A stretch of 55,290 bases of DNA from a virus (Duplodnaviria; Caudoviricetes): IMG/VR virus record IMGVR_UViG_3300032006_000008, positions 1 to 55,290 of that record; one strand, written 5' to 3'. Shown piece after piece: positions 25,038 through 47,463 of this stretch (position 1 is its first letter; each line of letters opens with the position of its first letter). The translations under genes were made by a program, and so were the position numbers. The notes under the pieces were generated by a model. That model was not told the origin of the DNA and searched no databases. It saw only the letters and a program-made list of their open reading frames with translations.

Positions 25038-25040
25038 TGA

Positions 25041-27031: not shown

Positions 27032-27049
27032 ATATAGAAGAGGGATATA

Positions 27050-27717: not shown

Positions 27718-28085
27718 AGTGTCCAGTTTGTGGTTATTTGTATGGTAGTAACAAAAAGCAATCAGAGGATTTAGGTGAGATGATGAGGAAGAGAGGTGAA
27801 AAGACTAGAAAACTAATACAGAAAGTTCAAAGGGATATAGTTAAAAAAGTACCTTCAGATAGAACATTAAATTCATATTGGAAGTTTATAAAAGCAGTTG
27901 AACACATAGAAGATAGAGAATTAAGAAGAGGAATAAATGATTTTTACAAAGCCAATCACATAAACTATGGAAGAGGGTTAGCATATTTAAAAGCAATTAT
28001 AGTTAATAAACATCTAAACAAAGATAAACAAAAAGAATTAGAACGTAAACGGCTTGGCAGTACGCCACCATTAAGGGAGATATAA
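27714..28085 (+). CDS. Hypothetical basic protein (possible replication/loader accessory)
   Basis: N-terminal CPVC; LAYLKAII weakly resembles a DnaD-type motif. Confidence 0.5.
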   Translation: MKCPVCGYLYGSNKKQSEDLGEMMRKRGEKTRKLIQKVQRDIVKKVPSDRTLNSYWKFIKAVEHIEDRELRRGINDFYKANHINYGRGLAYLKAIIVNKHLNKDKQKELERKRLGSTPPLREI

Positions 28086-28086
28086 T

Positions 28087-28278
28087 ATGTTTATGGTATA
28101 TTGGAAAAAGATGCTAAAAGACAAAACAGATGCCCCAATGATGAGTTTTGATACTAGCATAGAAGCAAGAGCATATATTAAAGGGATAATAGATGCTATA
28201 AAAATCCATGTTGAAGGCACGGATGAAATTAAACTAATAAAAGAGTTTGAAGTGCGTGAGCACAGAACTCAGAAATAA
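28087..28278 (+). CDS. Hypothetical protein
   Basis: 63 aa, GGGAG RBS. Confidence 0.55.
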   Translation: MFMVYWKKMLKDKTDAPMMSFDTSIEARAYIKGIIDAIKIHVEGTDEIKLIKEFEVREHRTQK

Positions 28279-28287
28279 GAGGATAAA

Positions 28288-29903: not shown

Positions 29904-29915
29904 AAGGGAGATAGT

Positions 29916-31274
29916 ATGACAAAAAATAGTCCAATAGCAGAGCTACCCAGAGCTATAGACGCTGAGGAATCAGTAATTGGGTGCATATTGCTACACGGTG
30001 TTGATGTATATGAAGATGTACAGCCGTGGATAAAAAACGCAGAAGTTTTCTATAAAGAGATTCATCAAGAATTATGGAAAGCCTGCACATCTCTATACAA
30101 AGAAAATCAAACAATAGATATAATCACAGTTAAAGAAAAATTAAATGAAATGAAACTAAATTTAATAAATAAGGATGATTATGGGGCATATTATTTAACT
30201 GGACTAACTCAAGGTATTATAGGAAAGGCAAATATCAAGCATCACGCAAAGATAGTTTATGAAAAGTATGTACAAAGAAAGACAGCTGTAAGTTCATATT
30301 CATTATTTGATAAAGCAAGTGACAACTATAAAGATATACAGCAAGGATTAGTTGAACATGAAAGATTGATTGATGAATTAAAATCAATACAACCAACTAG
30401 AAGAAAAACAATTGACGATGTAATGGATGATACTATAGAAGCATTAGAAACATCAAATGATATTATACCCTTTGACTTTGAACCATTAGATATTTCATCT
30501 AGAGGAATGACAAGAAAAGAAATAACTATTCTTGGAGGTAGACCAGGGCATGGTAAAACTACCTTAATGATTAATATTATTTCCAAGTTAGTCTTATCAG
30601 GTAAAAAGGTAATGGTCTTTTCTAGGGAAATGAGTAAAGAAGAATTAATGAAAAAACTATTAATATTAGAAAGTAAGAATTTAGAATACTCAGCGTTAAG
30701 AAAACCAGAGATGACAGAGGATGAGCAACAACAGCTTGATAGAGCAATATTAGAAATACGTAGTAAGTATCGCAATTTGACCATCTATGATAACATAAGA
30801 ACCCTTAGCGAATCAATGCGGGAGATAAGTAGACATAAACCTGATGTTATTTTTGATGATTATGTCCAATTGATACAAGTAGATATAAATGGAAACAATG
30901 ATAGAAGGTTTCAGATAGAAACTATTATGATGGAATACAAATGGATAGTGAAAAAGATTAATGCTTCTGCATTTTTACTAAGTCAATTAAATAGAGAAAT
31001 AGAAAGAAGATTAGACCCAGAACCAAAATTAAGTGATTATGCAGAAAGTGGTGTAATTGAACAAGTTGCAGAAACAGCGATGTTTGTATTTTATGGATAT
31101 AATTTTGACCATGAAGAATATGGAAGAAATGAAAGTAAAATCATTGTAGCAAAATCTAGATATGGACAAATTGGACAATATGTAGTTGGATTTAATGGAG
31201 ATAGATGTAAATATTATAATAACCCTCAAGAAGCAGAAGATGAAATCACAGGACAAAGAAACTTATTGTCATAA
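29916..31274 (+). CDS. dnaB: DnaB-like replicative helicase
   Basis: AEESVIG N-domain, Walker A GRPGHGKT, FSREM, DYVQL, SQLNR, ESGVIEQ.A, KSRYG. Confidence 0.92.
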   Translation: MTKNSPIAELPRAIDAEESVIGCILLHGVDVYEDVQPWIKNAEVFYKEIHQELWKACTSLYKENQTIDIITVKEKLNEMKLNLINKDDYGAYYLTGLTQGIIGKANIKHHAKIVYEKYVQRKTAVSSYSLFDKASDNYKDIQQGLVEHERLIDELKSIQPTRRKTIDDVMDDTIEALETSNDIIPFDFEPLDISSRGMTRKEITILGGRPGHGKTTLMINIISKLVLSGKKVMVFSREMSKEELMKKLLILESKNLEYSALRKPEMTEDEQQQLDRAILEIRSKYRNLTIYDNIRTLSESMREISRHKPDVIFDDYVQLIQVDINGNNDRRFQIETIMMEYKWIVKKINASAFLLSQLNREIERRLDPEPKLSDYAESGVIEQVAETAMFVFYGYNFDHEEYGRNESKIIVAKSRYGQIGQYVVGFNGDRCKYYNNPQEAEDEITGQRNLLS

Positions 31275-31719
31275 TACATTTGTAGGAATAGACCCAGGCG
31301 CAAGTGGTGGTATAGCTATGATACATGGAGATGAATGTGTTGCTTGGAAGTTTCCTAGAGACAGAAAACAATTAATAAAGATTATAAAAGCTATTAAAAG
31401 AACTAATAGAGTTAATAAGATTACTTGCTATATAGAAAATGTCCATGCATTTCCAACAGATGCTAGAAGTAGAGCATTTGCATTTGGAAAGAATTTTGGA
31501 GTTTGGCTCGGAATGTTGACTGCCTTTTCTTTATCTTACAATAAAGTTACCCCTTCTACTTGGCAGTCGCATTTTGGGTCTTTTCCAAAAGAAAAGAAAC
31601 ATAGGAAAAATGCTATTAAAGATATAGCAAAAGAAAGATTTCCTAACACCGATAAAATTACATTAGCAACAGCTGATGCAATACTAATAGCGTTATACGC
31701 AAAGGAGGAAAAATGTTAA
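31240..31719 (+). CDS. RuvC-like Holliday junction resolvase
   Basis: GIDPG..GG, IENVH, FG..FG, VTPSTWQ, ADAILIA; start probably 31240. Confidence 0.85.
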   Translation: MKSQDKETYCHNTFVGIDPGASGGIAMIHGDECVAWKFPRDRKQLIKIIKAIKRTNRVNKITCYIENVHAFPTDARSRAFAFGKNFGVWLGMLTAFSLSYNKVTPSTWQSHFGSFPKEKKHRKNAIKDIAKERFPNTDKITLATADAILIALYAKEEKC

Positions 31720-31961
31720 GTCAAAAAGGAAATACCAAATCTTGGTTTAAGATTGGAATAGAAGAGTTTTTATGCATAAAAGCAGATACAATTACAATGG
31801 ATGATGTTGGATTAAGATTAGATACTTTGGAAATAGATTTCTTTCCATTTAGATTTACGATAACACAACAAAATGGAGCACAAGTAACATTTGCAATTGA
31901 TTTCATATTAGCTCAATTTGCTTTTACTGTTTCTCTTGGAAGAGGTTTCAGATATGAGTAA
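31713..31961 (+). CDS. Hypothetical protein
   Basis: 82 aa, AAGGAGG RBS. Confidence 0.6.
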   Translation: MLSQKGNTKSWFKIGIEEFLCIKADTITMDDVGLRLDTLEIDFFPFRFTITQQNGAQVTFAIDFILAQFAFTVSLGRGFRYE

Positions 31962-32121
31962 AGACTTATGGTTAAGAAAATTATTAAAACTAGCTCAAGA
32001 GAATATGGAAGAAGCTCTTCAGAAATCGTCTATAAATGAATGGGGGGAGTCTAAGGTTTATATGAAAATGGTTCAGCAAAGACTAAACGCTATGTCAGAC
32101 TACATTAAAGCAAAGAATTAA
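31954..32121 (+). CDS. Hypothetical protein, last + strand gene
   Basis: GAGGT RBS; its stop overlaps the stop of the convergent gene (TTAA). Confidence 0.55.
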   Translation: MSKDLWLRKLLKLAQENMEEALQKSSINEWGESKVYMKMVQQRLNAMSDYIKAKN

Positions 32122-35100
32122 TAGTCTTCATCTATAGTCTCATAAATGTCGTTCATCACATTTGCTCCTGGAACATAAGCTCTTAAACCTGCCCATCCCT
32201 CTCCTTTTACTAAGGATAATAATACGTTTACAATAACAGGTAGGAAAAAGAACTGCCAATCTTTGACATATTGCTCTTCTTCATCTTCTGTCATTTGTCC
32301 AGCCACTAATAATCCCAACATTAGTGTTCTTAAAATAAATGATATAGTTACAGATTGAGCACCCCTTACACTATTTCCCATAGGCATTGGTAAAAATCTT
32401 CTTAATATAGAATTAGCAAGAGAAATTCCAGGAGCAAATGTAGATAAAACAGTCAATACTGACATACCTCCTCTAATAGCTAAAAATGTAAACATTCTCT
32501 CAGCAGATAAATCAAATTTAGGATTGCCACTAGCTATTAAATCACCATATCCTAATTTCTCTCCTGTTAATGTTCTAGTAACTTTTCTTTTGCCAGCTGT
32601 AAGTAGCCTAGAACTCCAGCCTGGAACATGAAAAAATCCCCCACTCTCAGAAAAGAATTGCTCCATTATATTGTACTCTCTGACCCATTGAGCAAATGTA
32701 TAGGTTTTGAATTGAAAACCTACCACCCCAAATAACCCACCAAACATCTTTGGAAAATATTCCCTAGACATACCAAACATAGTATTTTTAACATTGACCC
32801 TAGCCATTATTAATGAAGGGGCTTGTTTATATTTATTACCCTCCTTATTTGCGTCAAGTTGTCCTAGTTTCTCTGCTAGTAACATACCTTGAATAGCAGC
32901 CCTCCTTCTCATAAATAATTCCACACCACTAAAAGTGAATAAAGATTTTGCACTTTCACTAATTTGCCACGTTAACATCCATGATGCTAACTGATTAATC
33001 TGGCTACTATTTAAACTCTGGTTTAAATCCTTAATCCTTTTCTTTAAAATTAAAATTTCTTTTCTAGTAGCTACCGCTTCTCTAATATCATTTTCTTTTA
33101 TATTATCTATATTTTCTTTCTTAGAAAGAATTTTCTTTAAATGATTCATTTGCAACCAAAAAGCTGCTCTTTGTTTCCTTAATGCTTCATAATTATCTTG
33201 GTCTTTTTGTGGAAGTAGTCTCATTAACCATCTATCTATTCCAGTATTCTTGTTTATAAAATCTTTTTTATTCATCTTTAAAAGAGACCAATTGAGCCTT
33301 GCACTCATAAAAGTATGCCACGGGGTTGATGATTCATCCCCACCTGCCATATAATCAGTATAAGCTGTAATTAAATCATCAACTCCACTAGCTTCTACAG
33401 CGTCTAATACTTCAGCGTCTTTCATCATTCCCCTAACAGCTAGAGTGTCTCTAAATCCCCAGTCTTCTATTAGACTTTCCATTTGAGTCATGTTTGTAAT
33501 GGATGATAGCCAATTCAAAACATTACCAGAAACCCAGTTATTATGGTTAGATGCCCACTTAGAAACTTGCCTTGATGTTACTGGAGAAGTTTGTCCGTTT
33601 CTACCTCTAATGGCATTAATCCTATCAGCTGATTCTTGAAATCCATACTTAAAACCTAAAAATCCAGCGTCATAAGATAAATCTTTTAGTGATATTTTAG
33701 TTTGATTTATAAGCCATCTTCTCATCTCTGGGCTTTCAATAATTATCATAGCTTTAAGCAGCTCTGCTTTAAGTCTGCTGTACTGAATAGCTGTTACAAA
33801 TCTATTAGTATAATCTCTGTCTAGGTCTATATCTCTTCTTCTATTAAGAGGGTTTGTAAAAGTTTTTCTATGCTTAGTAAAGTGAGACCTAGTGGCTAGT
33901 TTCATTTTTCTTATATTCTTTGGATTGTAAGGGTCATCAAGAGCCAATGTCTTCATGTCTTGCATCCCGTCTCTCATATCTTCTAAGCTTTTTATCTTAG
34001 ATTCTAATCTAGCCTTTCTGTTCATGTGAAAATAAAACTCTTGAGGGGTAACTAGTTGCTCTCCAGTTGATACTCCCTGTTTAAAATCATTTATTATCTC
34101 CTCAGAATCTTGAAGCTCACCTTTTAGTGCGTTTATCATACCTCCTGATTGGGCAATAGCTTCGTCTACATCATCCCAATAAGTATCTTTTGTATATACT
34201 TGTGGTGAATAATTTTGAGTTACTTTTTTAGTGAACGTATCCCATCCTGCGATAGCCCCATCTCTCATAGTTGCAAGATTCGCCGCCATCCCTCCAATGT
34301 CCTCAATATATTCTAATATCTCTTTATAGTCCTCCATAGCATCTTGCTTCATTTTCTTCTCAGCTAGAATCTTAGCTTCATTTAGAATTTTATTAGTCGC
34401 CTCTATTTCCTCCTCTACCATGTTAATAAACTTTGCATTTTGCTCTCTCTTTAACTGGAGAGCTTGCCATATATTATATTGACCCGGATTCTGCGTTTTA
34501 TTATTAATACCAGCTATTTCATCAATTGGCTGTCTTTCTAAGTATTCAAAATCTGAATAACTATCTACATTTTTATTGCTATCACCTATTGTATAATCAT
34601 ACTGAGTATGTTGAGTAGCTTCATGAAATCCTTCTCTCATTCCAGTCCCTTCCCACATACCATCCATCTGAGCCCCAATAGTCGGCACCCACATATATTC
34701 ACCAGTTTGAGGGTCTATTCCACCTCTCCTTATCATGACAGCAGCATAATATTCATGTTGATTATTAGGCTCAGACCCATCCTCATTTCTTTTCATCATT
34801 ACCCAAACAGATTCAACTCCATTTTTTTCTTGCTGATTAATAATCATCTCATGATGACTCGGACCTTGATATGCTTCTCCAAACTCTGTTGTGTATTCTT
34901 TTCTATATGTAGTTAAAAAATCCTTTTCTTCTTCTGTTAAGTTTTGATATAAAGTAGGAACTATATACCTTACCCTTCCATCAGCTAAATCCGATAATAA
35001 ACGAATATAATCATCTCTTATCAAATCTTCTTGTTTCTCTCTGGTTAAGTCATCAAAATGCTTATCAACAACTAATTCTTTGCTAATCCTCTCGGTAACT

Positions 35101-35879
35101 TGCTCCCCTATTACCTCCTCAACAATGGGATAATCATACCTTTCCTTATGCATAGTTCTGAATCTAATGTCTTCTAGATTTTTATAATTCCTTAATGTTG
35201 AGAGAACTCTTTTAGTAAAAAACCCATTAATTTCTCCATAGGCATCAACAAATGGCTGTTGCATATCAAATATTGATTCATTAAGACTTGTTATTTTATC
35301 TAAAATCAGAACACCTGCCCCAGTCTCTTCTTGAGTTGCAACCATTCTAAATATATCCCTTGAATACTCATTCCAGTTCCCAAGCTTCTTCTTTGGTTTT
35401 ACCCTTACAAACCTATCTACCATTTGAGAATATTTTTTTATTAATGGGACATTTAAGTGATTAAGATTCATCAAAGGAAATCCTAGATAATTATAAGACA
35501 TTACATTTACTGCATCTATAATTTGATGATTGGGCATTACAAACAGAGTCTTAGCCATAACATCAGCAGCGTGCTTAGCTAGGTCATTGTATATTTTATA
35601 ATGCAATCTTAGTCTTAATTTCTCACTTTTCAATCTCCCCACCATTACTTTTCTTCTTTTCTTTATCTCTTTTACTCTTTTATAATCTTTTAGAGATTTT
35701 TGTAATAGAAGTTCTTTATCTAAAGCTTTTATTTCTATTTCAAAACCAGTAGATAAATCTTTTGGTTGTCCAATTGACTGGTTTAAAGAACCAAGAATAG
35801 ACGTTGTTAAAGACTTAGCCTCTTCTTTTGTTACTTTAGACTCAAATAAAACGTTACAATAGTCTGCTGCTCTGCTCAT
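32118..35879 (-). CDS. Large internal virion (ejection) protein with C-terminal membrane helices
   Basis: 1253 aa, helical; FGVVGFQFKTY (QFKxY motif of podovirus ejection proteins) and several hydrophobic C-terminal helices; last gene of the late operon. Confidence 0.7.
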   Translation of the reverse strand: MSRAADYCNVLFESKVTKEEAKSLTTSILGSLNQSIGQPKDLSTGFEIEIKALDKELLLQKSLKDYKRVKEIKKRRKVMVGRLKSEKLRLRLHYKIYNDLAKHAADVMAKTLFVMPNHQIIDAVNVMSYNYLGFPLMNLNHLNVPLIKKYSQMVDRFVRVKPKKKLGNWNEYSRDIFRMVATQEETGAGVLILDKITSLNESIFDMQQPFVDAYGEINGFFTKRVLSTLRNYKNLEDIRFRTMHKERYDYPIVEEVIGEQVTERISKELVVDKHFDDLTREKQEDLIRDDYIRLLSDLADGRVRYIVPTLYQNLTEEEKDFLTTYRKEYTTEFGEAYQGPSHHEMIINQQEKNGVESVWVMMKRNEDGSEPNNQHEYYAAVMIRRGGIDPQTGEYMWVPTIGAQMDGMWEGTGMREGFHEATQHTQYDYTIGDSNKNVDSYSDFEYLERQPIDEIAGINNKTQNPGQYNIWQALQLKREQNAKFINMVEEEIEATNKILNEAKILAEKKMKQDAMEDYKEILEYIEDIGGMAANLATMRDGAIAGWDTFTKKVTQNYSPQVYTKDTYWDDVDEAIAQSGGMINALKGELQDSEEIINDFKQGVSTGEQLVTPQEFYFHMNRKARLESKIKSLEDMRDGMQDMKTLALDDPYNPKNIRKMKLATRSHFTKHRKTFTNPLNRRRDIDLDRDYTNRFVTAIQYSRLKAELLKAMIIIESPEMRRWLINQTKISLKDLSYDAGFLGFKYGFQESADRINAIRGRNGQTSPVTSRQVSKWASNHNNWVSGNVLNWLSSITNMTQMESLIEDWGFRDTLAVRGMMKDAEVLDAVEASGVDDLITAYTDYMAGGDESSTPWHTFMSARLNWSLLKMNKKDFINKNTGIDRWLMRLLPQKDQDNYEALRKQRAAFWLQMNHLKKILSKKENIDNIKENDIREAVATRKEILILKKRIKDLNQSLNSSQINQLASWMLTWQISESAKSLFTFSGVELFMRRRAAIQGMLLAEKLGQLDANKEGNKYKQAPSLIMARVNVKNTMFGMSREYFPKMFGGLFGVVGFQFKTYTFAQWVREYNIMEQFFSESGGFFHVPGWSSRLLTAGKRKVTRTLTGEKLGYGDLIASGNPKFDLSAERMFTFLAIRGGMSVLTVLSTFAPGISLANSILRRFLPMPMGNSVRGAQSVTISFILRTLMLGLLVAGQMTEDEEEQYVKDWQFFFLPVIVNVLLSLVKGEGWAGLRAYVPGANVMNDIYETIDEDY

Positions 35880-38800
35880 TTTGTTTTACAATTTCCTAAT
35901 TTTTCTAATAATTTATATGAACCATCATCAAATGTTGCTAATTTTATTTTAGCCCCTACAGCAGGCTCTGAATCAGGAGCATCTCTATATACCTCTGCAA
36001 ACTTGCTACCAAACAATCTAAAAAACCTTCCATCAATTAAATCCATTGGTAAAAAATGGCTCACATTTCTTATCCTGTCAACCCTTAGAGAGCCTTCTCC
36101 CCTTAATTTTAATTTCTCAGCCCTTTGAGACAGCTCTTCTTTAGTCGCTTCTATTTTATTTTCTAGATGGTCTATAGTCTCTTTTAATAAAACTGTTTGA
36201 TTATAGGCAGAATCAAGGTTTGATTTTATTCTTTGAAAATTGGCATATTGAGCTTTATTTTTAAAATCTTGAGATGAGAGACCCTTTTTAGAAGTTAAAA
36301 GTTCATAATCACCCTCTTGGGTGAGTTCCATAGAAACACTCTTTCCATAATCAACCATCTGATTACTTACGCCTTGATGTAATTGTAATTGCCCTAAATA
36401 TTCTCTTTTATATCTCTTAAGCTGATTGGATTCTTTCATATTTTCAATTCTAATATCTCTAAACTTTAACCTAAGAGAAGCAGGAATCATGTCTTGTATT
36501 GTAGATGTCCCGCTAAAGAAAGATAGGGAAGAAACAAATCTTGCTCCATCTGATAGTGCATTGAAATGAGGAAGCCACTGAGAAATAAAATGATTATTAA
36601 AAACAACATCATGGTCAATCTTTGCTACATTCAATTCTATTTCATCAATCAAAGTATTTTTTTCATTTACAACTTGAAGTAACATATAAAATTCTTTATT
36701 CATCTTTCTAGCAAATGCAAGACCTGTAACTATATCATTATCTGATAATTCATATTCTTTAACCAAAGCTGAAAGTTTAGCTGCTCCTTCTGGTCCTGGC
36801 TTTCCAACTATAGCCTGCATAGCCATATACCTTGCATTGTCCTCTTGATTTTTTGACATCTGTAAAAAGTTTGGCATATCATCTATCTGATTATCAACCA
36901 TATGTTTCCAAAGAGAAGCGACTGTATCTTCTAAATATGTTGTAGGAACTGTCTTGTCTCCTTCTTTAATATTATTAAATTGAACATCGTTAATAACAAG
37001 AGGTCTTTGAGGTCTTCTTTGAGCTCTCATCTCTTCCATCATTCTTGCATTATAATCTTTAAATACCTTTTTAGGAACTTTTAAATCTAAAGACATAATA
37101 TCTTGAACTTGCTCTGCTACAGTCTTATTAGTTCTATCATAAACAACTTTGCTCATCTCAGTCAGCTTTTCTGCTCCAACATAACTTTGGTCTTCGTCTC
37201 TTCCTTGCCTTACTTCGCTTGTTTTAAAATGATTAACAACTTTTTTTACTAGTGTCTGAGCTTCCTTATGACCAGAGACTATCTCATTACCCTCTTTATC
37301 TATAATCTTAAATGTTCTACTTCTAATAAACGTAACAAAATTTTCTATAACACCTATAGATGTTTGGCGACCATATAAAGTGCTCCACCAAAGAGCTAGT
37401 AATCCTTTTGTACTTTCATCAAAAGAAGCCTGCTGGATAATAGCCATCTCCCTATCGCTTGTTGTCTTTAGATATTTTACTCCATCTATAACAACTATGG
37501 AGTCACCAATCGGAATATTCTCTTGAACAATATCATCACGAAGTGGAGCATAGTCCATTATTACTTCTTCATCAATTGCTCTTTGAGTTAGGATTACATC
37601 TTGATAGTAATGCCCACTAAAATTTATAGCTAAACCTTTATGATTAAGAGAAGACCTCATAGTTCTAGCGTTTTGCACCATGCCGACTTGAGTTCCAGTT
37701 TCAAAATTATTAGCAATTTCTGTCACTACATTTGGGGTGGTTGGAGTAAATACCTTTTGAGGGTCTGCAAATATATCTAAAGGAATTTGATATACCATAC
37801 TTTTATACTCATCAGTATAATCATACTTATCCCCTGATTTCTGCCATTGAAAATCAATTAATTCTTTAGTTAGCTCCCTGTCCCATTTCCTACTAGTTAC
37901 AGCATCTCCGTCAAAATCTTGTTCTAGCATTTTTTTCATAGTATCATGCATAAAGACAACATCCCCATAATCTCTATATAGAAAATGTGCAATTTCTAAC
38001 ATTTGAGGATTTGTAAAGTGCTGAATTGGAAATCTGTAAAACTGTTCCCACCTATCTTTACTTGGGTCTGGTGGATTATTTTTCAGAAAATCATTAATAG
38101 CGTCTACCTGTTTTCTTCTTCCCTCTCTTGTATTGCCCCATTTGTTCCATTTTTCTACAACTTGTTTGGCTTGCCCATATAGATATGCATCAACTACTAT
38201 ATTCCATGAAACATCAAAGGGGGTTGCTCCATATTGATGAGGTTCTAATATGCCATGAAAATCTGGAATAACATGACTATAATTAGCAGCTTGAAAGCGA
38301 CTTGCTTTTGTAGGCTTCCTTGATTTAACTCTACCTCTAAAAGCTCCATCAACAACAAACCTATTTTTTATCATACCAACTTGAGGGTTAGAAAAATGGC
38401 TATGTAACAATATTGCGAATGAATCTGGGTCTTCTTCTAACATTTCTATAGACTTTGATAAATCAGATTTTGTAATGGTTTGGCTTTTCTGCAAGCTCTT
38501 TAGCCACTTCGCAAGTATATTTGGATTTTCTCTCATAGCAGAAATAGAGTTAAAATAATCTTTTTGATTTGTCTTTACTGCTTCAATTAGCTTATCAAAT
38601 AGAGGTGCTATGTCTGGGTTAGTGGTTATCATATCTTGCCATTGGTCAAACCATTGGAAAGGAGCAGTTCCACTTCCTTTAGAAAAGAAGTTAGAGTTCA
38701 TTAATATTCTAATATCCCCAGGCTCCATATAGTTAACTGTATTAGCAACATCATAGTTACCCTGTGCCATCTTTTTTTCTTCATTTGAAAAGACTTCATC

Positions 38801-41800
38801 CAATGGAATACCTTCAGCAGTTTTTATCTCCACTGAGGTATTATTTTCATTCCATCTAGATGTCCAAATCATTCTATCGCCTGGCTGTGGAGTTCTTGTT
38901 TCATCGCTATATTCATAAACAGTTATTCCAGCAGGAGCTAAAGTATTTAGTCCCTTTACCTGTATATAATCCTCACTATTCTCAGACATTTTTCTATCAA
39001 AAGTTTTTATCCAGCCTGGGAGATTGTCCAACTTATCTTGCTCTGGCATTCTTCCAAGAGGGACTGCTAGTTCAGAAAAGTAATTAGTAGATGATGGCTT
39101 ATTACCATCCCAAATATAATCCCCATTTTCATCCATTAGAGGAATAATTTTCCCAGTCACATCACTTATTGCATATGAGTTTTTATAATCAAACCATAAA
39201 TATGGAAAAGATGTAGCCCCTTCTGCGTTAACACCATCAGCAAACTCATTATTGTATCTTTTAAAATGAGCGGACATAGGATACCCTAGAACTTCATGAA
39301 GAGATTTTGTTCCATGAGTTTTTTGTATCCATCTGTATCTACCAACTATAGCAACAGCTAATTCAACAGCCTCTCCTCTAGCTAAGTTTACATCCTCTTT
39401 CATCTCATCGGCTTGATTTTGCGTTATATTTCCCTTCTCAACTTCTCCATCAAACCAAGCATCTGTATTGTCTTGCTCTCTCGCTATTGTTACATCATCT
39501 ACATCAGAAACACCTATAACTAGAGACTTACCTTTACCTCCCTTACTTGCGACAAGGAAAGCTGGGTATCTCATTTTATTAAATCTTCTATATCCGAATG
39601 CTAATTCCATATTTAATTGGTCTAAAGCATTTTTATCAAGAGTAAAAAATTCATCTTGGAATACCCACAGTTTCCTTAAATCAAACTTTGTTGGGTCGCC
39701 TTCTTGGTATGGATTTTTTTTATGAGCTCTTCTAATTCGTGTAGTATATATATCATTAGCACTTAAAAGGAATACTCTATCATGCATATCAGGGTTAGCT
39801 TCTAAGAAATTAGCTAACACAAAATCAGAATAATTTATCCCATTTACAGGATTAACTTGAGTTTGGCTATGCAATCTCTTGTCTGACTCACCAAGCTTTC
39901 TAGTCCTTCCATCATCTCCTTTTTCAACATTATTTAAAACAAGAGCTCCCCTGTCTCCTCTAGGTATAGAATTTATAATATTGTGATAATGACTGTTTAT
40001 AATATTGTAATTTCTATTAGACTGCTCTTCACTAACATCAACATTAAAAGATTCTTGCAGATATTCATAAAACTCTTCTCTTTCCATTTTGAGATTAGAG
40101 GCTGGTTTTATATAATCACCGCCTTCTTTTTTCCAAGTTCCCTTTCCTCTTGACCAAATATCCCATCTAATATCATTCCAATCATCAATGGTCATCCTCT
40201 CTCCAGAGTATTCTTCTATTAAATTCTTTAAATTCTGAGCATCTTTACCAACTTGTTCTTCTCTTTTATGCTGACCTATCAAATCATCATATGTATCTGG
40301 ATAGTCATCTGCTAGACCTTCTTGATTTTCCCAATCAATATTATCAGTCATATCTCCAACATATCTCTCTAAATCCAGTCTCATAGTCTTAGTGAATGCT
40401 TTACCAAAAGAACCCAAGTCTTCACCAACTGTAAAAAATCTTCTGTTAGATAAGTTTGTAACTCTTCCTATTTCATGACTTTTAGCCCATTTAGAAAACC
40501 AATCTTTTAAAACTTTTGTGTATTTAAATTTAAATCTTAGTTTTCTTATTTGCTTAATTACTCCATTATAGAATCTTTTAAATAATTGTTTTTCAGATAA
40601 TCCAATATTATTATAAGCCTTCTTAAATTCAATCCAAGCTGCTTGAAAATGCTTAGAGGCTGCTACGAAATCACTATCAGGTAATGGATTCATAGCAAAC
40701 TTATTAAGGTCTATTTTGAGTAAAGCTTGAAAAGCTTTTAATATCTCATAAGCTGCTTTTGTAAAATGATTTTGTTTGTCAGTAGAAGATTCTTGATATT
40801 TTTGATTAAATCCTCTTATTCTGTTTAAGAAATTATCAGTACTTCCATATCTTTGCTTAATCGTTTCAATTATCTTATCAACCATCATCTGTCTTTGAGA
40901 ATCATCTTTAAAATTATCATTATACTGACCTAAGAGTTGGTCAATAGCAGTTTCTATTCCAACTCCATCAATATTCTTTTGCTCAAAACTTGTCATAGCT
41001 AACAATGCTTTGGCTAAAGGAGAAAGGCTTTTAAATTCTCTGTCTATCTGGCTAGATTTACTTTTATTTTTTCCAGTCCTATTTTTTATAAATTCTGAAA
41101 CGTCTGTATCTGGTAAAGACTCACTTGCCATAGCTCTATCAAAGTCTGTTGTTCTTCCAGTGTTTTGTTCTCTTTTTTCATCTACGTCTTCTTTAGTATC
41201 TTGACTGACATCAGCTTTCTTTAAATCACCAACCGACATTCCTGTTAGCTCCATCATCTCCTGATATGACATATCCCCCATTCTCTTCGCTCCTCCCAAC
41301 TGAGAAGCATCTACGGTTTCATATTTTGAAGGCTTTTGCTTTTGAGCTGGTGGAGTAGGTGAGCTATCCTGCTCTTGTTTTAGACTTCTTATTGATGAGA
41401 CAATGGCTTTTGCTATTTTTTTCTTGTTTGCTACACTATAAGATAATTCTCCGTTTTTCTTTTTAGCCACAGTTTCATCTTTAAGTAGTCCTTTTTTTAT
41501 AGATGGAAATTCTTCTAATGTATTATTTAATTGAGTAGCTGTTAGCGATGATAAAAATTTTGTAGGATTCTCTTTAGATTCAAGCTCTCCTATTATCTTT
41601 CCTCTTTTTACTTCTTGTGGGTCTTTAGATGGCTTATATGGAGTTCTTTTATTAATGTCATCCCCAAGCTCCTTTTTAACCTTTTCGTATCTCTTTCTAC
41701 CTTCTTCAGTATGTCTATATACTTCTTCATCTAACGCTTGTTCTGCTTTTCTTTCATATTCTTTCTCAGGCTCTTTTTCTGATGGTGCAGTAAATATATT

Positions 41801-44434
41801 TGTTAATTCTTTTTCAAAACTTGTATACTTACTTTCAGCATCGTGTATACCCTCAGTCGCGTCAATAATGGCTTGCTCCTCAGAAAGTCTTTGATTAACA
41901 AGACTATCTACAAAGTCTTTTCCCTTCTTACCTTTGATAATAATCTTTGGGTCACCTTTTTTACTTTGCCCTGTTAAACTACTTCCTAAGCTTCTCCCTT
42001 TTTTAAACCCTAATTCACCAGTAACAAACATTCCAATCATCTCATCTAATTGTCTATTAATAGTATCTTCATCTGCCGCTAGATTTTCATTTGAGGACAG
42101 TGAAGGAAATATTTTCTTTATATACTCTCTTGCTAATATTAATGCATTTTCCTTTGATTGCTCATCCATCTCTTCTAGGATGCCCATGCCGCTTGGGTTC
42201 TTCATAAGTATATTTAATACCTGAGCTCCAACATCCTTATCTTGACTTGATTGCCTACCTCCAATCTCTTGCATAGCTTTAACAACTTCATTATCAGTTC
42301 TTAAGTTTCTATACTCATCTAAATTATATCCTCCGTCTTTAGCTATCTTCTTTAACCACATCCCCCAAGTCATATTGTCAACATGGTCTTCAGACTTAGC
42401 CTCCTCAGACAGATTACTTCCTACTAACTGACCTTGAGTGTAATTTCTTCCAAGAGTTTCTTGTAAATCTTGATTAATTTCCTCATCTAGCTCAGATTCA
42501 ATAGATTGTTTCTTAGCTCTATTAGCAAGAACTCTAATACCACCTGCTCCCACTCCAAAGACACCACCACCTAATAGTCCCCCAAATCCCTCAGCGAACA
42601 TTTGTTGCTTGTCAAACACATCATCAAACGTCTGGTCAGGTCTAACTTGTCCCAATGCTACAGCATTTTGAAATCTTTCATTAATTCCCTGAAAGACTTC
42701 TTCAACCATCTCTATTGTACCTTGCTTGAGAATATTGTATGCAAAATCTGCGTCTCTATTTTTCCATCCTTGTCTAAATCTATTCTTATTTGAGTTCCAT
42801 GCAGTCCTAGCTATTCCCTTTTTAGGAATAGAAGCCCTAGCTGCTTTAGCAATTGAAGGGATTCTTAACATCTCTAACATTGTATTAACAACACCAGTCT
42901 GAAGCCAAGCTGTGGAAGCTAAATCTAATGCCTCCATCTCTGTAAGAGTTCCATCCTTGACTTCTTTTTCCATGAGCTCTCCAAAGACTTCATCAAAAGA
43001 ACCTCCAGCTTGTTGACTAAACATAAATGCACTTGACAATGCATAAACAGTTGGACTCTTAGCTGTTAGTGAGTTAACAACCATAGCTACAGACGCAACC
43101 ATTGAAGGAGCTGATGTGATTAGTAAGTCTCTACCCCATGCCCATGTTTTACCATCTCCATCTAATATATCAGAGAACTTTTGACCAATTCCTCTCTCCA
43201 TCATGTCTTGTTGAAAAAGTGCATAAGCTAGAGCCTCAGGGTCTTTTTGAATAGCAGCTTCCATCTCAGCTCTTGCTAGTTTGTTTGCCTCCTTTAACCC
43301 TCCGTAACTCCAATCCTTCCCAAGCATCATCCCAACTGATTTCATCAAATTTGGAGCTTTTTTCATTTGAGCGAGCTTTTCTTCTGGCTCTAGTATATAT
43401 CTAATGTTTTCTGGCGAGAGTTCGTCTTTTGTAGCTGTTTCAAGTTTTTGTACTTTAATATTTAAACTAGCTTTGAATTGGTCTTCTAATGCTTTATCAT
43501 TTAATAGAAAATTATCATGGGAAGAACCACCATCATCTTTCTTTACCTCTTCCTCTTCTCTTACTTTATTTTGTAAAGAATCATAGACTGTAGAATCTGG
43601 AACAGACTGAAATGATTTTTCATCAATTCCTAGCATATTAGCTAAGTCTTTAGATATAATGTGACCACTACCTGTTCTAAAGTTATTTTCATCCTCAGAT
43701 TGCATAGTAATAGCTGGAACATTTATTGTTTCCATACTATCTATTCTGCCAGATGATTCTGCAATCATAACAGCTTTAGCTGTATCAGCGTCTTCTCCAA
43801 ACATCTCATCTATATGATTTAGATACTTTTCATCTAATCCATATGTTTTAGCTATTGTAGTGTTGTCTAGACCAAGAAACGGCTTATGAAGACCCTCTCT
43901 ATGCGTTGTCCACCTTTTCCATCCTTCTTTCTTTTTTAATCTAGATGCATATTCAATATTTTGCTCTGGGGTCATATCCGATGGAGGAACAAACTTTCCC
44001 CAGACTAATTTTTGATTATCTACACCTTGATAATGGTCATTTATTTGAAATAATCCATGACTATGGGTTTTTTTGAGATTTTTCTTAGGGTCAGGACCTT
44101 CGGGTGTAAAGTCTCCATAAATACCACTCTGTAAATTTTCCCAGTGCTCTCTTAATGATACAGTATTTTGAGCATTATGAGCCTGCAAAGCTTGCCCTCC
44201 ACTTCTAAGTGGGGTAGCTAAGTCTACATTACCAAATGCTCTTCTCCAGTCAGGACCGTAAGAATCTAGACCTCTGACTATTTCTTCTGCTTTTTCAGGG
44301 GATTGGTCTTGTAGAAGCTGTATTACAACTTCTCTATCTGGCTTATTCTGAGCTTGTGAAAGAGTCCAAAAACCGGTTTCTACATATTGTCCTCTTGCCC
44401 AACTAGCTAATTCCTGGAGTGAATATCCATTCAT
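35876..44434 (-). CDS. Giant virion protein: permuted lysozyme/SLT domain, membrane segment and two-barrel virion RNA polymerase
   Basis: 2852 aa; GLFQIN (aa127) and AESSG (E226); GFGGLLGGGVFGVGAGG; WDG (D1776), IK (K1810), VKG (K1827); YRFP (R2134); QDFDGD (D2173-D2177); VGMVQN; QASFDESTK. Confidence 0.8.
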   Translation of the reverse strand: MNGYSLQELASWARGQYVETGFWTLSQAQNKPDREVVIQLLQDQSPEKAEEIVRGLDSYGPDWRRAFGNVDLATPLRSGGQALQAHNAQNTVSLREHWENLQSGIYGDFTPEGPDPKKNLKKTHSHGLFQINDHYQGVDNQKLVWGKFVPPSDMTPEQNIEYASRLKKKEGWKRWTTHREGLHKPFLGLDNTTIAKTYGLDEKYLNHIDEMFGEDADTAKAVMIAESSGRIDSMETINVPAITMQSEDENNFRTGSGHIISKDLANMLGIDEKSFQSVPDSTVYDSLQNKVREEEEVKKDDGGSSHDNFLLNDKALEDQFKASLNIKVQKLETATKDELSPENIRYILEPEEKLAQMKKAPNLMKSVGMMLGKDWSYGGLKEANKLARAEMEAAIQKDPEALAYALFQQDMMERGIGQKFSDILDGDGKTWAWGRDLLITSAPSMVASVAMVVNSLTAKSPTVYALSSAFMFSQQAGGSFDEVFGELMEKEVKDGTLTEMEALDLASTAWLQTGVVNTMLEMLRIPSIAKAARASIPKKGIARTAWNSNKNRFRQGWKNRDADFAYNILKQGTIEMVEEVFQGINERFQNAVALGQVRPDQTFDDVFDKQQMFAEGFGGLLGGGVFGVGAGGIRVLANRAKKQSIESELDEEINQDLQETLGRNYTQGQLVGSNLSEEAKSEDHVDNMTWGMWLKKIAKDGGYNLDEYRNLRTDNEVVKAMQEIGGRQSSQDKDVGAQVLNILMKNPSGMGILEEMDEQSKENALILAREYIKKIFPSLSSNENLAADEDTINRQLDEMIGMFVTGELGFKKGRSLGSSLTGQSKKGDPKIIIKGKKGKDFVDSLVNQRLSEEQAIIDATEGIHDAESKYTSFEKELTNIFTAPSEKEPEKEYERKAEQALDEEVYRHTEEGRKRYEKVKKELGDDINKRTPYKPSKDPQEVKRGKIIGELESKENPTKFLSSLTATQLNNTLEEFPSIKKGLLKDETVAKKKNGELSYSVANKKKIAKAIVSSIRSLKQEQDSSPTPPAQKQKPSKYETVDASQLGGAKRMGDMSYQEMMELTGMSVGDLKKADVSQDTKEDVDEKREQNTGRTTDFDRAMASESLPDTDVSEFIKNRTGKNKSKSSQIDREFKSLSPLAKALLAMTSFEQKNIDGVGIETAIDQLLGQYNDNFKDDSQRQMMVDKIIETIKQRYGSTDNFLNRIRGFNQKYQESSTDKQNHFTKAAYEILKAFQALLKIDLNKFAMNPLPDSDFVAASKHFQAAWIEFKKAYNNIGLSEKQLFKRFYNGVIKQIRKLRFKFKYTKVLKDWFSKWAKSHEIGRVTNLSNRRFFTVGEDLGSFGKAFTKTMRLDLERYVGDMTDNIDWENQEGLADDYPDTYDDLIGQHKREEQVGKDAQNLKNLIEEYSGERMTIDDWNDIRWDIWSRGKGTWKKEGGDYIKPASNLKMEREEFYEYLQESFNVDVSEEQSNRNYNIINSHYHNIINSIPRGDRGALVLNNVEKGDDGRTRKLGESDKRLHSQTQVNPVNGINYSDFVLANFLEANPDMHDRVFLLSANDIYTTRIRRAHKKNPYQEGDPTKFDLRKLWVFQDEFFTLDKNALDQLNMELAFGYRRFNKMRYPAFLVASKGGKGKSLVIGVSDVDDVTIAREQDNTDAWFDGEVEKGNITQNQADEMKEDVNLARGEAVELAVAIVGRYRWIQKTHGTKSLHEVLGYPMSAHFKRYNNEFADGVNAEGATSFPYLWFDYKNSYAISDVTGKIIPLMDENGDYIWDGNKPSSTNYFSELAVPLGRMPEQDKLDNLPGWIKTFDRKMSENSEDYIQVKGLNTLAPAGITVYEYSDETRTPQPGDRMIWTSRWNENNTSVEIKTAEGIPLDEVFSNEEKKMAQGNYDVANTVNYMEPGDIRILMNSNFFSKGSGTAPFQWFDQWQDMITTNPDIAPLFDKLIEAVKTNQKDYFNSISAMRENPNILAKWLKSLQKSQTITKSDLSKSIEMLEEDPDSFAILLHSHFSNPQVGMIKNRFVVDGAFRGRVKSRKPTKASRFQAANYSHVIPDFHGILEPHQYGATPFDVSWNIVVDAYLYGQAKQVVEKWNKWGNTREGRRKQVDAINDFLKNNPPDPSKDRWEQFYRFPIQHFTNPQMLEIAHFLYRDYGDVVFMHDTMKKMLEQDFDGDAVTSRKWDRELTKELIDFQWQKSGDKYDYTDEYKSMVYQIPLDIFADPQKVFTPTTPNVVTEIANNFETGTQVGMVQNARTMRSSLNHKGLAINFSGHYYQDVILTQRAIDEEVIMDYAPLRDDIVQENIPIGDSIVVIDGVKYLKTTSDREMAIIQQASFDESTKGLLALWWSTLYGRQTSIGVIENFVTFIRSRTFKIIDKEGNEIVSGHKEAQTLVKKVVNHFKTSEVRQGRDEDQSYVGAEKLTEMSKVVYDRTNKTVAEQVQDIMSLDLKVPKKVFKDYNARMMEEMRAQRRPQRPLVINDVQFNNIKEGDKTVPTTYLEDTVASLWKHMVDNQIDDMPNFLQMSKNQEDNARYMAMQAIVGKPGPEGAAKLSALVKEYELSDNDIVTGLAFARKMNKEFYMLLQVVNEKNTLIDEIELNVAKIDHDVVFNNHFISQWLPHFNALSDGARFVSSLSFFSGTSTIQDMIPASLRLKFRDIRIENMKESNQLKRYKREYLGQLQLHQGVSNQMVDYGKSVSMELTQEGDYELLTSKKGLSSQDFKNKAQYANFQRIKSNLDSAYNQTVLLKETIDHLENKIEATKEELSQRAEKLKLRGEGSLRVDRIRNVSHFLPMDLIDGRFFRLFGSKFAEVYRDAPDSEPAVGAKIKLATFDDGSYKLLEKLGNCKTK

Positions 44435-44442
44435 AAAATTAT

Positions 44443-45705
44443 TTACTTGGTTGGTATATTAATATTTGTAGGTAATCCCGTACCACTTCCACCAACTGCA
44501 TTTTTTACTTGTAATAAGGGTGAACCAAACATTTTTTCATATTCTTCGTTAATTCTTCTTAAATAATCCACGTAAGCCTGTACTCCTCTAGCCACATTAG
44601 TGCTTTCTTTTCCATATTCTTTAACATTCAAATCCATCCATCCGCCTCCTGTAATTTCTATTTTAAGTTTTTCCAGCTCATCTGGGTCTGCAATTAAGCT
44701 CTTAACGTCTCCATCGTATCCCAATTGATTTGCAAATTGTCTAAGAGATTCCACTCTTTGATTAAACATAGTTTGCCACGGCTTCTGATTCTGAAAAACT
44801 TCAGGCTTTGAGCCATGAAAAGATTTGCTAATATTTTGATGACTGCTAACAAAAGAAGAAAGTTCTTCATGGTCTTTTAGAAGTTTACTACTACTTATAG
44901 GCTCTAGAGCCCCAGTAAGGATAGATTCTGAAGCTTTTATATTACTAATTCTAGCTGTTGTCTCAGCCGCTAAGAGTTTATCTCTAATTTTTATATCACC
45001 AATAGCTTTTTTAGCTTGTTCAAAATCTCCCGCCTCAACATAGCCTGCAACATTGTTTAACCAATCTTGTAAAGTCTGACCTTGAAATGGAACAGCTGCT
45101 CCCTTTGCTTTCATATCAACTTGTACGCCTTTGATTTCCTTATCCAAGTCATGTTTACCTAAGAAAGTAACAACGTCAGCAACATCTTTTAAGTCGCTTA
45201 GCTCTTCATTTAAAAACTTTCTTTGTTGAATGTTAAATAAATTTGCATTTTTGTTTAACATTTTATGTACGTTATCTAAAGATTTTACAGCATCATTATC
45301 AGAATAGAATCCAGACTTAGCTTGCTTCTCTAATGCATAAATACTATCAACTGCTTTTATAAACTCATTACTAACTTGCTCCTTCTTTTCTGATACTGGC
45401 TTTATTCCTCTTTCATAGTATCCAGAAATAGCTTCATAGAATGGCTTTATAACAAGGTTGTCACGATATTCTCCATCATCATTCAACGCTAAAGCTTTTA
45501 GACCATCCATAATGCCTTCATTAACATCAATAGGATTGTCAAAGTCTAGTTTATTTGCTAATGTATTCATCCTAACAGATAAATCATCTCTTAGTGCATT
45601 GTCTTTTGTAAACTGACCCATAGCTTGTAAGAGATAAAACCCCTTGTAAGCTAAATTTAGCAAACTTGTTTCTTGTATATCTATATCATATTTTCCACTT
45701 GCCAT
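44443..45705 (-). CDS. Putative internal virion/ejection protein
   Basis: 420 aa, helical, Cys-free, in the ejection operon. Confidence 0.55.
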   Translation of the reverse strand: MASGKYDIDIQETSLLNLAYKGFYLLQAMGQFTKDNALRDDLSVRMNTLANKLDFDNPIDVNEGIMDGLKALALNDDGEYRDNLVIKPFYEAISGYYERGIKPVSEKKEQVSNEFIKAVDSIYALEKQAKSGFYSDNDAVKSLDNVHKMLNKNANLFNIQQRKFLNEELSDLKDVADVVTFLGKHDLDKEIKGVQVDMKAKGAAVPFQGQTLQDWLNNVAGYVEAGDFEQAKKAIGDIKIRDKLLAAETTARISNIKASESILTGALEPISSSKLLKDHEELSSFVSSHQNISKSFHGSKPEVFQNQKPWQTMFNQRVESLRQFANQLGYDGDVKSLIADPDELEKLKIEITGGGWMDLNVKEYGKESTNVARGVQAYVDYLRRINEEYEKMFGSPLLQVKNAVGGSGTGLPTNINIPTK

Positions 45706-46433
45706 TATGATTGTTCCATTTGTTCTACTTGCATAAGTCTATCAAAGAAGTCATCCATCCATTGTTGTCTCTGACCATAAACATCTTGTTCAAAACCTAT
45801 AGCTGCTTGTTTTGCCTCAAAGTCTAAACTAGTTATAGCGTCATCTAAAGTTCCTAATTTAGCTTCAGCTTGTCCCATCATTTGATTTTGCTGTCCATAT
45901 ATTCCTGTTTGTGTAGTTTGAGACTGGAATCTATCTGCGAAAGTTCCACCTCTTAATCCACCAACTTGCTGTGACCTCTGCGTTGAAGCTTGATTTAGTT
46001 TAAATGATTCAGTCTCACCTGAGCGCATTACATTTTCTAAATTCATATCTAGACCACTCATTAATGAGCCTCTCTGTCTAGCAATTCCTTGTTTCTTTAA
46101 TTCTGTTTTCTCCTGCTCAATACCAAATAAATCTTTTAAGAAAAACTCCTCTTGAGGGTCATATTCCATTCCCTCAAAATATTTTCTCATATCAGAGTCT
46201 ACGCCATACTTTTTAAACAAATCCTCAAGGTTAAGATTAAATTTATCTTGCCAATCAAAATTAGGCATTCCCTCTACATCGCTTTGAGGATTAGTATCAT
46301 CATCGCCTCTTTGGTCTTTATTCCACTGAGCTAACCAATCTGAAGCTTCATTTTTAGTTGAAAACGATATAACCATCTCGCTATCATCATTAAAAACTCC
46401 CCATACTCCAGGTTCTACTTCTTTTATATGCAT
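45705..46433 (-). CDS. Putative internal virion/ejection protein
   Basis: 242 aa, Q/E/D-rich helical, GGLRGG, Cys-free. Confidence 0.55.
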   Translation of the reverse strand: MHIKEVEPGVWGVFNDDSEMVISFSTKNEASDWLAQWNKDQRGDDDTNPQSDVEGMPNFDWQDKFNLNLEDLFKKYGVDSDMRKYFEGMEYDPQEEFFLKDLFGIEQEKTELKKQGIARQRGSLMSGLDMNLENVMRSGETESFKLNQASTQRSQQVGGLRGGTFADRFQSQTTQTGIYGQQNQMMGQAEAKLGTLDDAITSLDFEAKQAAIGFEQDVYGQRQQWMDDFFDRLMQVEQMEQS

Positions 46434-46437
46434 TTAT

Positions 46438-47463
46438 TTATACCTTTATAGAAGGATTTTTAAGCCATTCTTTAAACAATACATCACCACCCAAGTCTTC
46501 ATACATTCCACCTCTAGATACAAAGCTACTATCAGAGTGAGTATATCCACCTTGCCCTTTAGATGCTAGGGTTTTTATATCATCAACAAGAGATTGTCCT
46601 GTAAATCCCTTTTGAGAAGATATGAATCTATTCTGAGCAGAACTTCCTGTATAATTACTAGAACTAGCTACATTAGTTGGACTAGAGGATGTAACAGTTT
46701 GAGGTGATGAGCCAGATGTAATACTTGCTGTATCTGTAGTTCCAACCATTTGTTGTGTTTTTTCTTGCATATTTTTAATCCACTGGTCATAGTCTCCAAT
46801 AAAGCCTGCCTTCTTACTTCTTTCATATGACTCTAGAAGAGTAGTGTCCTTTACAGCTAGCTCTGCTAAGTCTTCTTTTGGAGCACTCCCCCAAGCTGGC
46901 GTTCCAGATGCTCCTCCCCATTTTGAAAATGGTTTACTTTGTGTAATCTTATCACTTACTCCCATATCTTTTAATTTATCACCAGCAGCTGCTCCTCCAC
47001 CAGTTGTCCATCCAGCTATTACAGCAGTTGTCATAGCATTCATTCTAGCACTTTTCTCTATAGCTTCATCAGTAGCTTTAAAACTAGCAGCTTGACTTTC
47101 TTTACTCTTTCTCATTAATCCACCCTGTAGGGCTTTCATTTTTGAAAGTTTTGTTTTTTCAGTTGCATCCGCTAGACCTCTTCCTAAGAGACTTCCACCA
47201 TAAGAACCTCCCCCCATAGCCGCTGCTGTAGCAGCCCACCCTAAAGGATTAGAGGCTAAAATAGCTCCAGTTACAAGAGTACCGGCAGCCGCTCCTATGT
47301 TACTCCACAAACTTTTCTTTTTGCCTTTCTCAGCGGCTTCAGCGGCTTGTTCTTCCAATTGAGTTATAGTCTCCAGAGCATCTTTATTTAGAAGTCTTTT
47401 TCCATACTGCTTCCCTTTGTACTCTTTAACTTCTTTTACTTGTTTATTTTCAATGTCTGCCAT
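46438..47463 (-). CDS. Putative ejection protein (P22 gp7/T7 gp14-like, G/A-rich membrane segment)
   Basis: IGAAAGTLVTGAILASNPLGWAATAAAMGGG glycine-zipper-like segment; first gene after the promoter. Confidence 0.6.
   Translation of the reverse strand: MADIENKQVKEVKEYKGKQYGKRLLNKDALETITQLEEQAAEAAEKGKKKSLWSNIGAAAGTLVTGAILASNPLGWAATAAAMGGGSYGGSLLGRGLADATEKTKLSKMKALQGGLMRKSKESQAASFKATDEAIEKSARMNAMTTAVIAGWTTGGGAAAGDKLKDMGVSDKITQSKPFSKWGGASGTPAWGSAPKEDLAELAVKDTTLLESYERSKKAGFIGDYDQWIKNMQEKTQQMVGTTDTASITSGSSPQTVTSSSPTNVASSSNYTGSSAQNRFISSQKGFTGQSLVDDIKTLASKGQGGYTHSDSSFVSRGGMYEDLGGDVLFKEWLKNPSIKV

Follow-up and report, generated by a model that had tools for sequence, protein, structure and literature searches.

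The 55,290 bp window analysed here is the whole of IMG/VR record IMGVR_UViG_3300032006_000008, which comes from an uncultured marine short-tailed phage and is rated 99% complete. Near the end of its minus-strand virion operon, the window encodes a protein of 2852 amino acids (aa; P0001). Profile comparisons and residue conservation indicate that the last third of this protein very probably contains the core catalytic part of an RNA polymerase of the cellular type, a distant relative of the enzyme that crAss-like phages inject. The best explanation of the sequence, and a probable one, is an internal virion (ejection) protein whose C-terminal part is a single-chain two-barrel RNA polymerase module, a distant relative of gp66 of Cellulophaga phage phi14:2 (PDB 6VR4, the code as quoted in PMC10770324).

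Catalytic-barrel homology, presumed active-site residues, and relatives

An earlier note on this DNA, made from the sequence alone, had proposed the polymerase on the basis of a series of short motifs in the 2852-aa protein. All of these motifs lie where the note placed them: HFKRY at residue 1723, WDG at 1775–1777, K1810, VKG at 1826–1828, FSNEEKK at 1882–1888, YRFPIQ at 2133–2138, LEIAHFL at 2146, YGDVVFM at 2156, QDFDGD at 2172–2177, VGMVQN at 2250, and QASFDESTK at 2335. The position of DFDGD (nucleotides (nt) 37904–37918), which is the sole DxDxD of the protein, was verified by re-translation. The spacings between the upstream arginine and the first aspartate were also given correctly, with 35 residues separating R425 and D460 in E. 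coli beta' and 39 residues separating R2134 and D2173 here. The spacing in gp66, from R1322 to D1361, is identical to that in the 2852-aa protein.

The conservation of these residues was counted in an alignment (A5) of 42 rows with identities down to 18–20%, over the rows covering each column. In the aspartate loop, D2173 and D2175 are present in 36/36 rows, D2177 in 35/36, and G2176 in 33/36. The upstream arginine and proline of the R-x-P motif, R2134 and P2136, are invariant (35/35 each), and so are D1776 (29/29), K1810 (30/30), K1827 (33/33), and K1888 (33/33) in the preceding part of the protein. G1777, G1892, and N2114 are likewise invariant in the rows that cover them. Downstream of the loop, the bridge-helix-like block retains G2251 in 34 and N2255 in 32 of 37 rows, and the trigger-loop-like block retains T2324 in 38/38 and D2339 in 37/38. 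Conservation down to this level of identity makes the motif set more than chance. The earlier note had expected D1776, K1810, K1827, R2134, and DFDGD to be conserved in homologues, and this was found, with deviations limited to one row at D2177 and three at G2176.

The three exceptions at G2176 are the relatives P0021, P0030, and P0033 (1461–1513 aa), all of which read DFDID, as crAss phages do, and have cysteines at both ends. The statement that the phage keeps the cellular DFDGD instead of the crAss-type DFDID is correct for the 2852-aa protein and does not extend to these relatives. The three proteins may bridge the family of the 2852-aa protein and the crAss polymerases. The family as a whole connects enzymes of the DFDGD form with those of the DFDID form.

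The crAss enzymes used for comparison were gp66 and 120 homologues, and 28 sequences were aligned into a crAss polymerase profile. In hhalign, the profile of the family matched that of the 28 crAss polymerases with an expectation value (E) of 1.3e-3 over 257 columns. With trimmed profiles the match reached E 7.6e-4 and a score of 42.3 over 559 collinear columns, compared with 14.4 for the reversed control and 11.8–22.9 for column shuffles. The barrel segment, residues 2100–2190, aligned with gp66 residues 1300–1380 with a probability of 93.4%, E 2.6e-7, and a score of 39.1 over 73 columns, and the highest score among 15 shuffles was 14.5. The hidden Markov model (HMM) of the family matched 87 of the 120 crAss polymerases (E≤1e-3 in a database of 120), 81 of the 87 over their DFDxD, and none of the 120 reversed sequences at E≤1e-2. 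The top match in E. coli beta' covered residues 410–468 (NRAP...DFDGD; E 0.032), and a match of 28 residues had E 8e-4 in a database of six. These profile comparisons show homology between the segment around DFDGD and the catalytic (beta'-like) barrel of the virion RNA polymerases of crAss phages.

The alignment continues downstream of the barrel, where VGMVQN pairs with GVGITAN of gp66, and IIQQASFDESTKGLL pairs with SAFLNAFVDNAKDPYI. The bridge helix of gp66 comprises residues 1529–1559 and its trigger loop residues 1598–1636, according to the structural description in the gp66 paper, and GVGITAN and SAFLNAFVDNAKDPYI fall inside these two elements, respectively. The region past the barrel (residues 2190–2460 against gp66 1375–1700) scored 23.3 with E 0.022, and the 15 shuffles had a mean of 11.1 and a maximum of 14.2. 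Taken alone, the trigger-loop block scored 17.1 (shuffle maximum 11.9), the connector 18.0 (16.2), and the bridge-helix block a marginal 12.8 (12.5).

Seven full-length relatives of 2825–2917 aa, with identities of 41–100%, originate from marine metagenomes, and full-length relatives of 2813–2917 aa and 35–72% identity are accompanied by the same neighbouring genes. The gene order is repeated in metagenome loci of 35–41% identity, with proteins of 276, 247, 414, 2813, and 1250 aa followed by convergent genes for a resolvase, DnaB, a methylase, and DUF932. An exhaustive HMMER search with residues 1600–2500 returned 29 representatives, and a profile search with alignment A4 returned only P0009. 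No related DNA was found from IMG/VR or from prokaryote genomes. In tblastn against 50,697 phage records, nothing was found for the whole 2852-aa protein, its first 700 residues, its 1253-aa neighbour, or the relatives P0158, P0021, and P0023. Homologues that appeared to be short and stand-alone were rejected: the clusters of P0016, P0022, P0035, and P0012 also contain members of 1472–2940 aa, and the others come from short contigs. The look-alikes proposed by a language model are viral clusters carrying the Pfam RdRP family PF05183, and serve as a lead only. Near their C-termini, P0010, P0012, and P0167 contain an inserted YpsA SLOG domain of the circularly permuted type (PF12694; E down to 1e-25), which is also listed for the crAss polymerase homologue P0065.

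Proposed virion delivery, objections, and alternative readings

Several indirect lines fit the reading of the 2852-aa protein as an ejection protein. Its injection is inferred because of its position in the operon, its weak lysozyme-like N-terminus, its near-absence of cysteine, and the peptidase fusion of one relative. The gene stands among virion genes and is convergent with the replication genes. Searches of the 2852-aa protein and its relatives with Pfam, PHROGs, and NCBIfam gave only weak SLT_3 matches and, in relatives, cpYpsA. The SLT_3 match recurs in 7/7 family members, at residues ~100–190 in six and at residues 213–233 in P0008, with a best score of 26.4 bits against a cut-off of 27, and the family profile weakly matches the c-type lysozyme 2fbd (E 0.33). 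Together, the 2852-aa and 1253-aa proteins contain two cysteines in 4105 residues, whereas 33 would be expected from the 0.81% cysteine content elsewhere in the proteome (Poisson P 2e-12). In the relative P0161 (1893 aa), an HExxH peptidase-like domain (residues 386–507) precedes the polymerase module. This domain has a BLASTP match (E 9e-11) to phi14:2 g065, which is annotated as 'RNA polymerase associated protein'. It also matches the protein named 'internal virion protein with endolysin domain' in T7-like phages of Ralstonia and Xanthomonas. The crAss paper, in its account of these proteins, places g065, g066, and g067 in virions and notes that they form one fused polyprotein in some phages.

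The polymerase module would extend from about residue 1700 to the C-terminus, and the upstream block with D1776, K1810, K1827, and K1888 may form the second barrel, which would complete the active site. The protein would be packed in the capsid and leave through the tail ahead of or together with the DNA. The N-terminal 1700 residues, with the lysozyme-like domain and two hydrophobic segments, could help in crossing the envelope. Once in the cytoplasm, the polymerase would make the first phage transcripts independently of the host enzyme, most likely from the plus-strand early/replication block at 18.5–32 kb. No other RNA polymerase is recognisable in the 99%-complete genome.

A number of results weigh against an injected two-barrel polymerase. 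The reciprocal search, with the crAss HMM against the family, found nothing, its best E of 0.06 being away from the motif. The hhalign probabilities over the whole region are 18–25%, and the signal falls to E 0.063 when only seven close homologues are used. No sequence match to a polymerase was obtained from Pfam, PHROGs, NCBIfam, PF05183, YonO, or PDB. The relative P0014 has DFDGN in place of DFDGD, and the lysozyme-like match is under the Pfam cut-off in every member. The upstream block gave no signal when compared with gp66 residues 935–1080 in hhalign (12.0, against a shuffle mean of 12.3), the upstream region combined with the connector scored 20.9, below the shuffle maximum of 22.7, and E. 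coli beta gave nothing for the upstream region. The two facing double-psi beta-barrels are predictions from the sequence, the second of them a candidate. Packaging, injection, and early transcription are likewise predictions, made from the genes.

The silence of Pfam and PHROGs means little, because the experimentally proven crAss virion polymerase gp66 (P0038) is likewise without a match to a Pfam model (E≤5) or a PHROG (E≤0.01). The two libraries are unusable for excluding enzymes of the gp66 kind. In two-barrel polymerases in general, the catalytic barrel gives a strong signal, the bridge helix and trigger loop a weaker one, and the second barrel none; the DPBB-B barrel is poorly conserved among them (both from the comparative passages of PMC10770324). 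The signal in the family of the 2852-aa protein declines in the same manner, which was counted in favour of a polymerase. The proposal of a crAss-type enzyme is supported in part, by the homology of the catalytic barrel and by the bridge-helix-like and trigger-loop-like blocks in the same order, and lacks a sequence signal for the beta-like barrel. Of the two lysines that the earlier note had equated with the conserved lysines of beta, both K1810 and K1827 are invariant. With K1888, there are three invariant lysines instead of two, all of them candidate counterparts of the beta lysines.

The invariance of the three aspartates, R2134, P2136, and the four upstream charged residues at ~20% identity favours catalysis, and the suppression of cysteine and the position in the operon favour passage through the envelope. 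It is quite unlikely, given these properties, that the module is real but not delivered in an active form, whether as an unpackaged late-acting protein or as a structural remnant within an ejection protein. Such an outcome would agree with the DFDGN of P0014 and with the self-inhibited state in which gp66 crystallised, as reported in the description of its structure. Still more doubtful, to the point of being highly improbable, is that DFDGD is a short acidic motif in another Mg-dependent fold and that the collinear blocks are over-interpreted. The likeness to beta' covers just 28–58 residues, and the signal of the second barrel is absent. However, the barrel segment is aligned over 73 columns at 93% hhalign probability, which goes beyond a loop of five residues, the downstream region exceeds all 15 shuffles without containing the motif, and the reversed controls matched in 0/120 cases.

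The protein could also be a genuine injected nucleotidyl transferase of the crAss type whose task is something other than early transcription from promoters. It would copy single-stranded or entering DNA into RNA regardless of sequence, for example to supply replication primers or RNAs that interfere with the host. The passages on gp66 activity in bioRxiv 10.1101/2020.03.07.982082 describe good transcription of single-stranded and poor transcription of double-stranded DNA, and early transcripts that share no upstream motif. The phage has genes for DnaB, Sak, a PD-(D/E)XK nuclease, and a resolvase, and neither a DNA polymerase nor a primase was recognised with Pfam or PHROGs in its genome, including the plus-strand replication block. 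Nevertheless, this use of the enzyme appears unlikely, as the same preprint reports, in its part on infection, that the homologous phi14:2 enzyme transcribes early genes in vivo. There is no sign of priming in this phage, and in a genome where most genes go unmatched, the failure of Pfam and PHROGs to detect a primase is weak evidence. The role of a virion-delivered polymerase for early transcription remains the preferred explanation of the 2852-aa protein.

Cysteines at the chain ends

The single cysteines of the 2852-aa protein and of the 1253-aa protein encoded next to it lie close to the C-terminus and the N-terminus, respectively. The equivalent pair in L004 (2856 and 1245 aa) has C2853 and C8 as its cysteines, and that in L007 (2813 and 1250 aa) has C2812 and C10. 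In phi14:2, cysteine is found only as the last residue of g067 (1797 aa), as C3 and C2179 in the polymerase g066 (2180 aa), and only as C3 in g065 (1421 aa). The 54 sequences of the family, with 75,511 residues and fragments included, contain two internal cysteines, and five full-length members of 1461–1513 aa also have a cysteine at position 4–8. Among the crAss polymerases, 98/120 have their cysteines confined to within 10 residues of both ends. A C-terminal cysteine followed by an N-terminal cysteine in the next-encoded protein is therefore a feature of both groups, which otherwise share the polymerase core only. No mention of the pattern was found in the literature searched, which included the cysteine and disulfide passages of the crAss and N4-like papers.

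It is possible, as a tentative hypothesis built on these sequences, that a C2849–C8 disulfide links the polymerase protein end to end with its neighbour inside the virion, as would also hold for g067, g066, and g065. The ejection proteins might then pass out of the capsid as a single thread, in the order of their genes, and the reducing cytoplasm would free the polymerase. By analogy with the fused polyprotein, the disulfide in some phages might stand in for protein fusion in others. If true, terminal cysteines would be a shared and previously undescribed device of widespread polymerase-injecting phages, reaching beyond Crassvirales. If the link is real and covalent, it would be relevant to the question of how several giant proteins are lined up and drawn through a narrow tail.

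Low cysteine content is not limited to the two proteins. The five consecutive genes at 32118–47463 on the minus strand (341, 242, 420, 2852, and 1253 aa; 5108 residues) have two cysteines in total. Elsewhere in the phage, the terminase has six cysteines and the 293-aa nuclease has eight. The cysteine-poor block resembles the ejection operon as described for N4-like phages, of which cysteine suppression is a conserved feature (PMC11445570, in its passage on cysteines). The genes for the proteins of 420, 242, and 341 aa are probably part of the same ejection block as the gene for the 2852-aa protein.

Known systems and genome neighbourhood

The closest known counterpart is gp66 of phi14:2, and of Crassvirales more widely, with which the 2852-aa protein shares its size as a giant protein of the virion operon, the R-x-P motif followed after 39 residues by D-F-D-x-D, the order of the bridge-helix-like and trigger-loop-like blocks, and the restriction of cysteines to the chain ends. 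The genes for the giant proteins g067, g066, and g065 lie where the virion operon ends and converge with the replication genes, as here. In contrast, gp66 has DFDID where the 2852-aa protein has DFDGD, and the module described here takes up the final ~1150 residues, preceded by 1700 residues that include the weak lysozyme-like domain. Neither terminal region can be aligned between the two proteins: hhalign against gp66 gave nothing for the N-terminal 1700 or the C-terminal 400 residues. Nothing was found by hhalign between the N-terminus and phi14:2 g067 or between the 1253-aa protein and g065, and 23 proteins of the virion operon, searched by tblastn against 56.5 kb of phi14:2, gave nothing below E 0.2. 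Because no structural protein resembles those of phi14:2, and because the terminal parts of the 2852-aa protein cannot be aligned with gp66, the phage is not crAss-like by the sequence tests made here. Its genome of 55 kb also differs from the about 100 kb of Crassvirales.

The proteins N4 gp50 and DEV gp71 of Schitoviridae are similar in being ejected proteins of ~3000 residues that bring a polymerase into the cell. The gene for N4 gp50 is the last in the virion operon and is convergent with the replication genes, a layout like the one here. N4 gp50 has no cysteine in 3500 residues, which is the same suppression, but differs in having no terminal cysteine. The polymerase of N4 belongs to the T7-like single-subunit type, and its fold is unrelated to that of DFDGD enzymes.

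The T7 gp16-type internal virion proteins share the position in the virion operon and a lytic-type N-terminal domain, and P0161 matches their 'endolysin domain'. They differ in having no polymerase module, and the lysozyme-like match here is below the cut-off. QDE-1-type enzymes (PF05183) and YonO of SPbeta are single-chain two-barrel enzymes, and PF05183 clusters are among the language-model look-alikes. However, the PF05183 HMM matched nothing in the window at E≤10, and YonO gave nothing at the active site by hhalign or hmmsearch. In gp96 of Thermus phage P23-45, according to the section of PMC10770324 on this protein, a two-barrel virion polymerase is fused to the tape measure protein. The likeness lies in the fusion of a two-barrel polymerase to a protein that exits the virion via the tail. 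P23-45 is set apart, by description only, as a long-tailed siphovirus with the polymerase at the N-terminus of the tape measure protein.

Injected cellular-type RNA polymerases are already documented in crAss-like phages and, as a tape-measure fusion, in P23-45. The 2852-aa protein would place a distant relative of the crAss enzyme in small (55 kb) marine short-tailed phages without detectable crAss structural genes. It goes unrecognised in public annotation and in the family libraries searched. The finding would enlarge the set of phages whose infection begins without reliance on the host polymerase, and it supplies a set of invariant residues for testing.

The nearest cultured phages do not exceed 26% identity in the portal or 25% in the terminase. 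The virion operon on the minus strand has the order terminase, portal, capsid, adaptor, and tail fibres; it runs off the left end of the window and resumes from the right end. It terminates at 32118, after the genes for proteins of 771, 1011, 341, 242, 420, 2852, and 1253 aa. A tail-fibre open reading frame (ORF) at positions 1–1947 on the minus strand extends past the left end without reaching a stop codon, and a frame opens at the right end, at 54856–55290 on the same strand. The record is therefore probably a circularly permuted whole genome. For the 1253-aa protein, which is of no known family, searches of Pfam, PHROGs, NCBIfam, PDB, and phage records gave no match. The plus-strand block (18478–31961) encodes Sak, the PD-(D/E)XK nuclease, DUF932, a Dam-type methylase, DnaB, and the resolvase. 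No tRNAs and no Rfam matches were found in the window.

Table 1. Positions of genes, predicted domains, and motifs in the 55,290 bp window
Feature	Position (nt)	Strand	Basis or remark
SU10-type capsid protein	7851–9413	minus	Pfam model match, virion operon
P22-type portal	10435–12723	minus	Pfam model match, virion operon
Large terminase	13998–15548	minus	virion operon
1253-aa protein, last gene of the operon	32118–35879	minus	only cysteine C8, nt 35856–35858
2852-aa protein (P0001)	35876–44434	minus	ORF list and translation; second-to-last gene of the long virion operon
C2849, sole cysteine of the 2852-aa protein, fourth residue from the C-terminus	35888–35890	minus	invariant in the family
Trigger-loop-like block, aa 2315–2352 (TTSDRE...QASFDESTK)	37379–37492	minus	pairs with gp66 SAFLNAFVDNAKDPYI
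Bridge-helix-like block, aa 2236–2258 (VGMVQN)	37661–37729	minus	pairs with gp66 GVGITAN
Catalytic beta'-like barrel segment, aa 2100–2190 (N2114, R2134-x-P2136, G2157-D2158, DFDGD)	37865–38137	minus	hhalign, HMM
DFDGD (D2173, D2175, D2177), presumed Mg-binding loop	37904–37918	minus	motif and column conservation
Upstream block, aa 1773–1892 (D1776, G1777, K1810, K1827, K1888, G1892), candidate beta-like barrel	38759–39118	minus	columns of alignment A5
Gly-rich hydrophobic segment, aa 619–637	42524–42580	minus	Kyte-Doolittle 19-residue mean 1.43; putative role
Hydrophobic segment, aa 437–455, possibly membrane-inserting	43070–43126	minus	Kyte-Doolittle 19-residue mean 1.53; putative role
Weak lysozyme-like N-terminal domain, aa 118–180	43895–44083	minus	Pfam SLT_3, E 7e-4, below cut-off
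Three genes (420, 242, 341 aa) upstream of the 2852-aa gene	44443–47463	minus	no cysteine in any; synteny kept in L004 and L007

Sites of the sigma-70 type were also counted in the region, and their number equals the shuffle mean. No such site of at least 9/12 occurs in the 109 bp (18369–18477) that precede the plus-strand block. A near-consensus promoter of this type is positioned at 17973–18000 on the minus strand and faces the virion operon; it consists of TTGACA, a spacer of 16 nt, and TG-TATATT, and agrees with the consensus in 11/12 positions.

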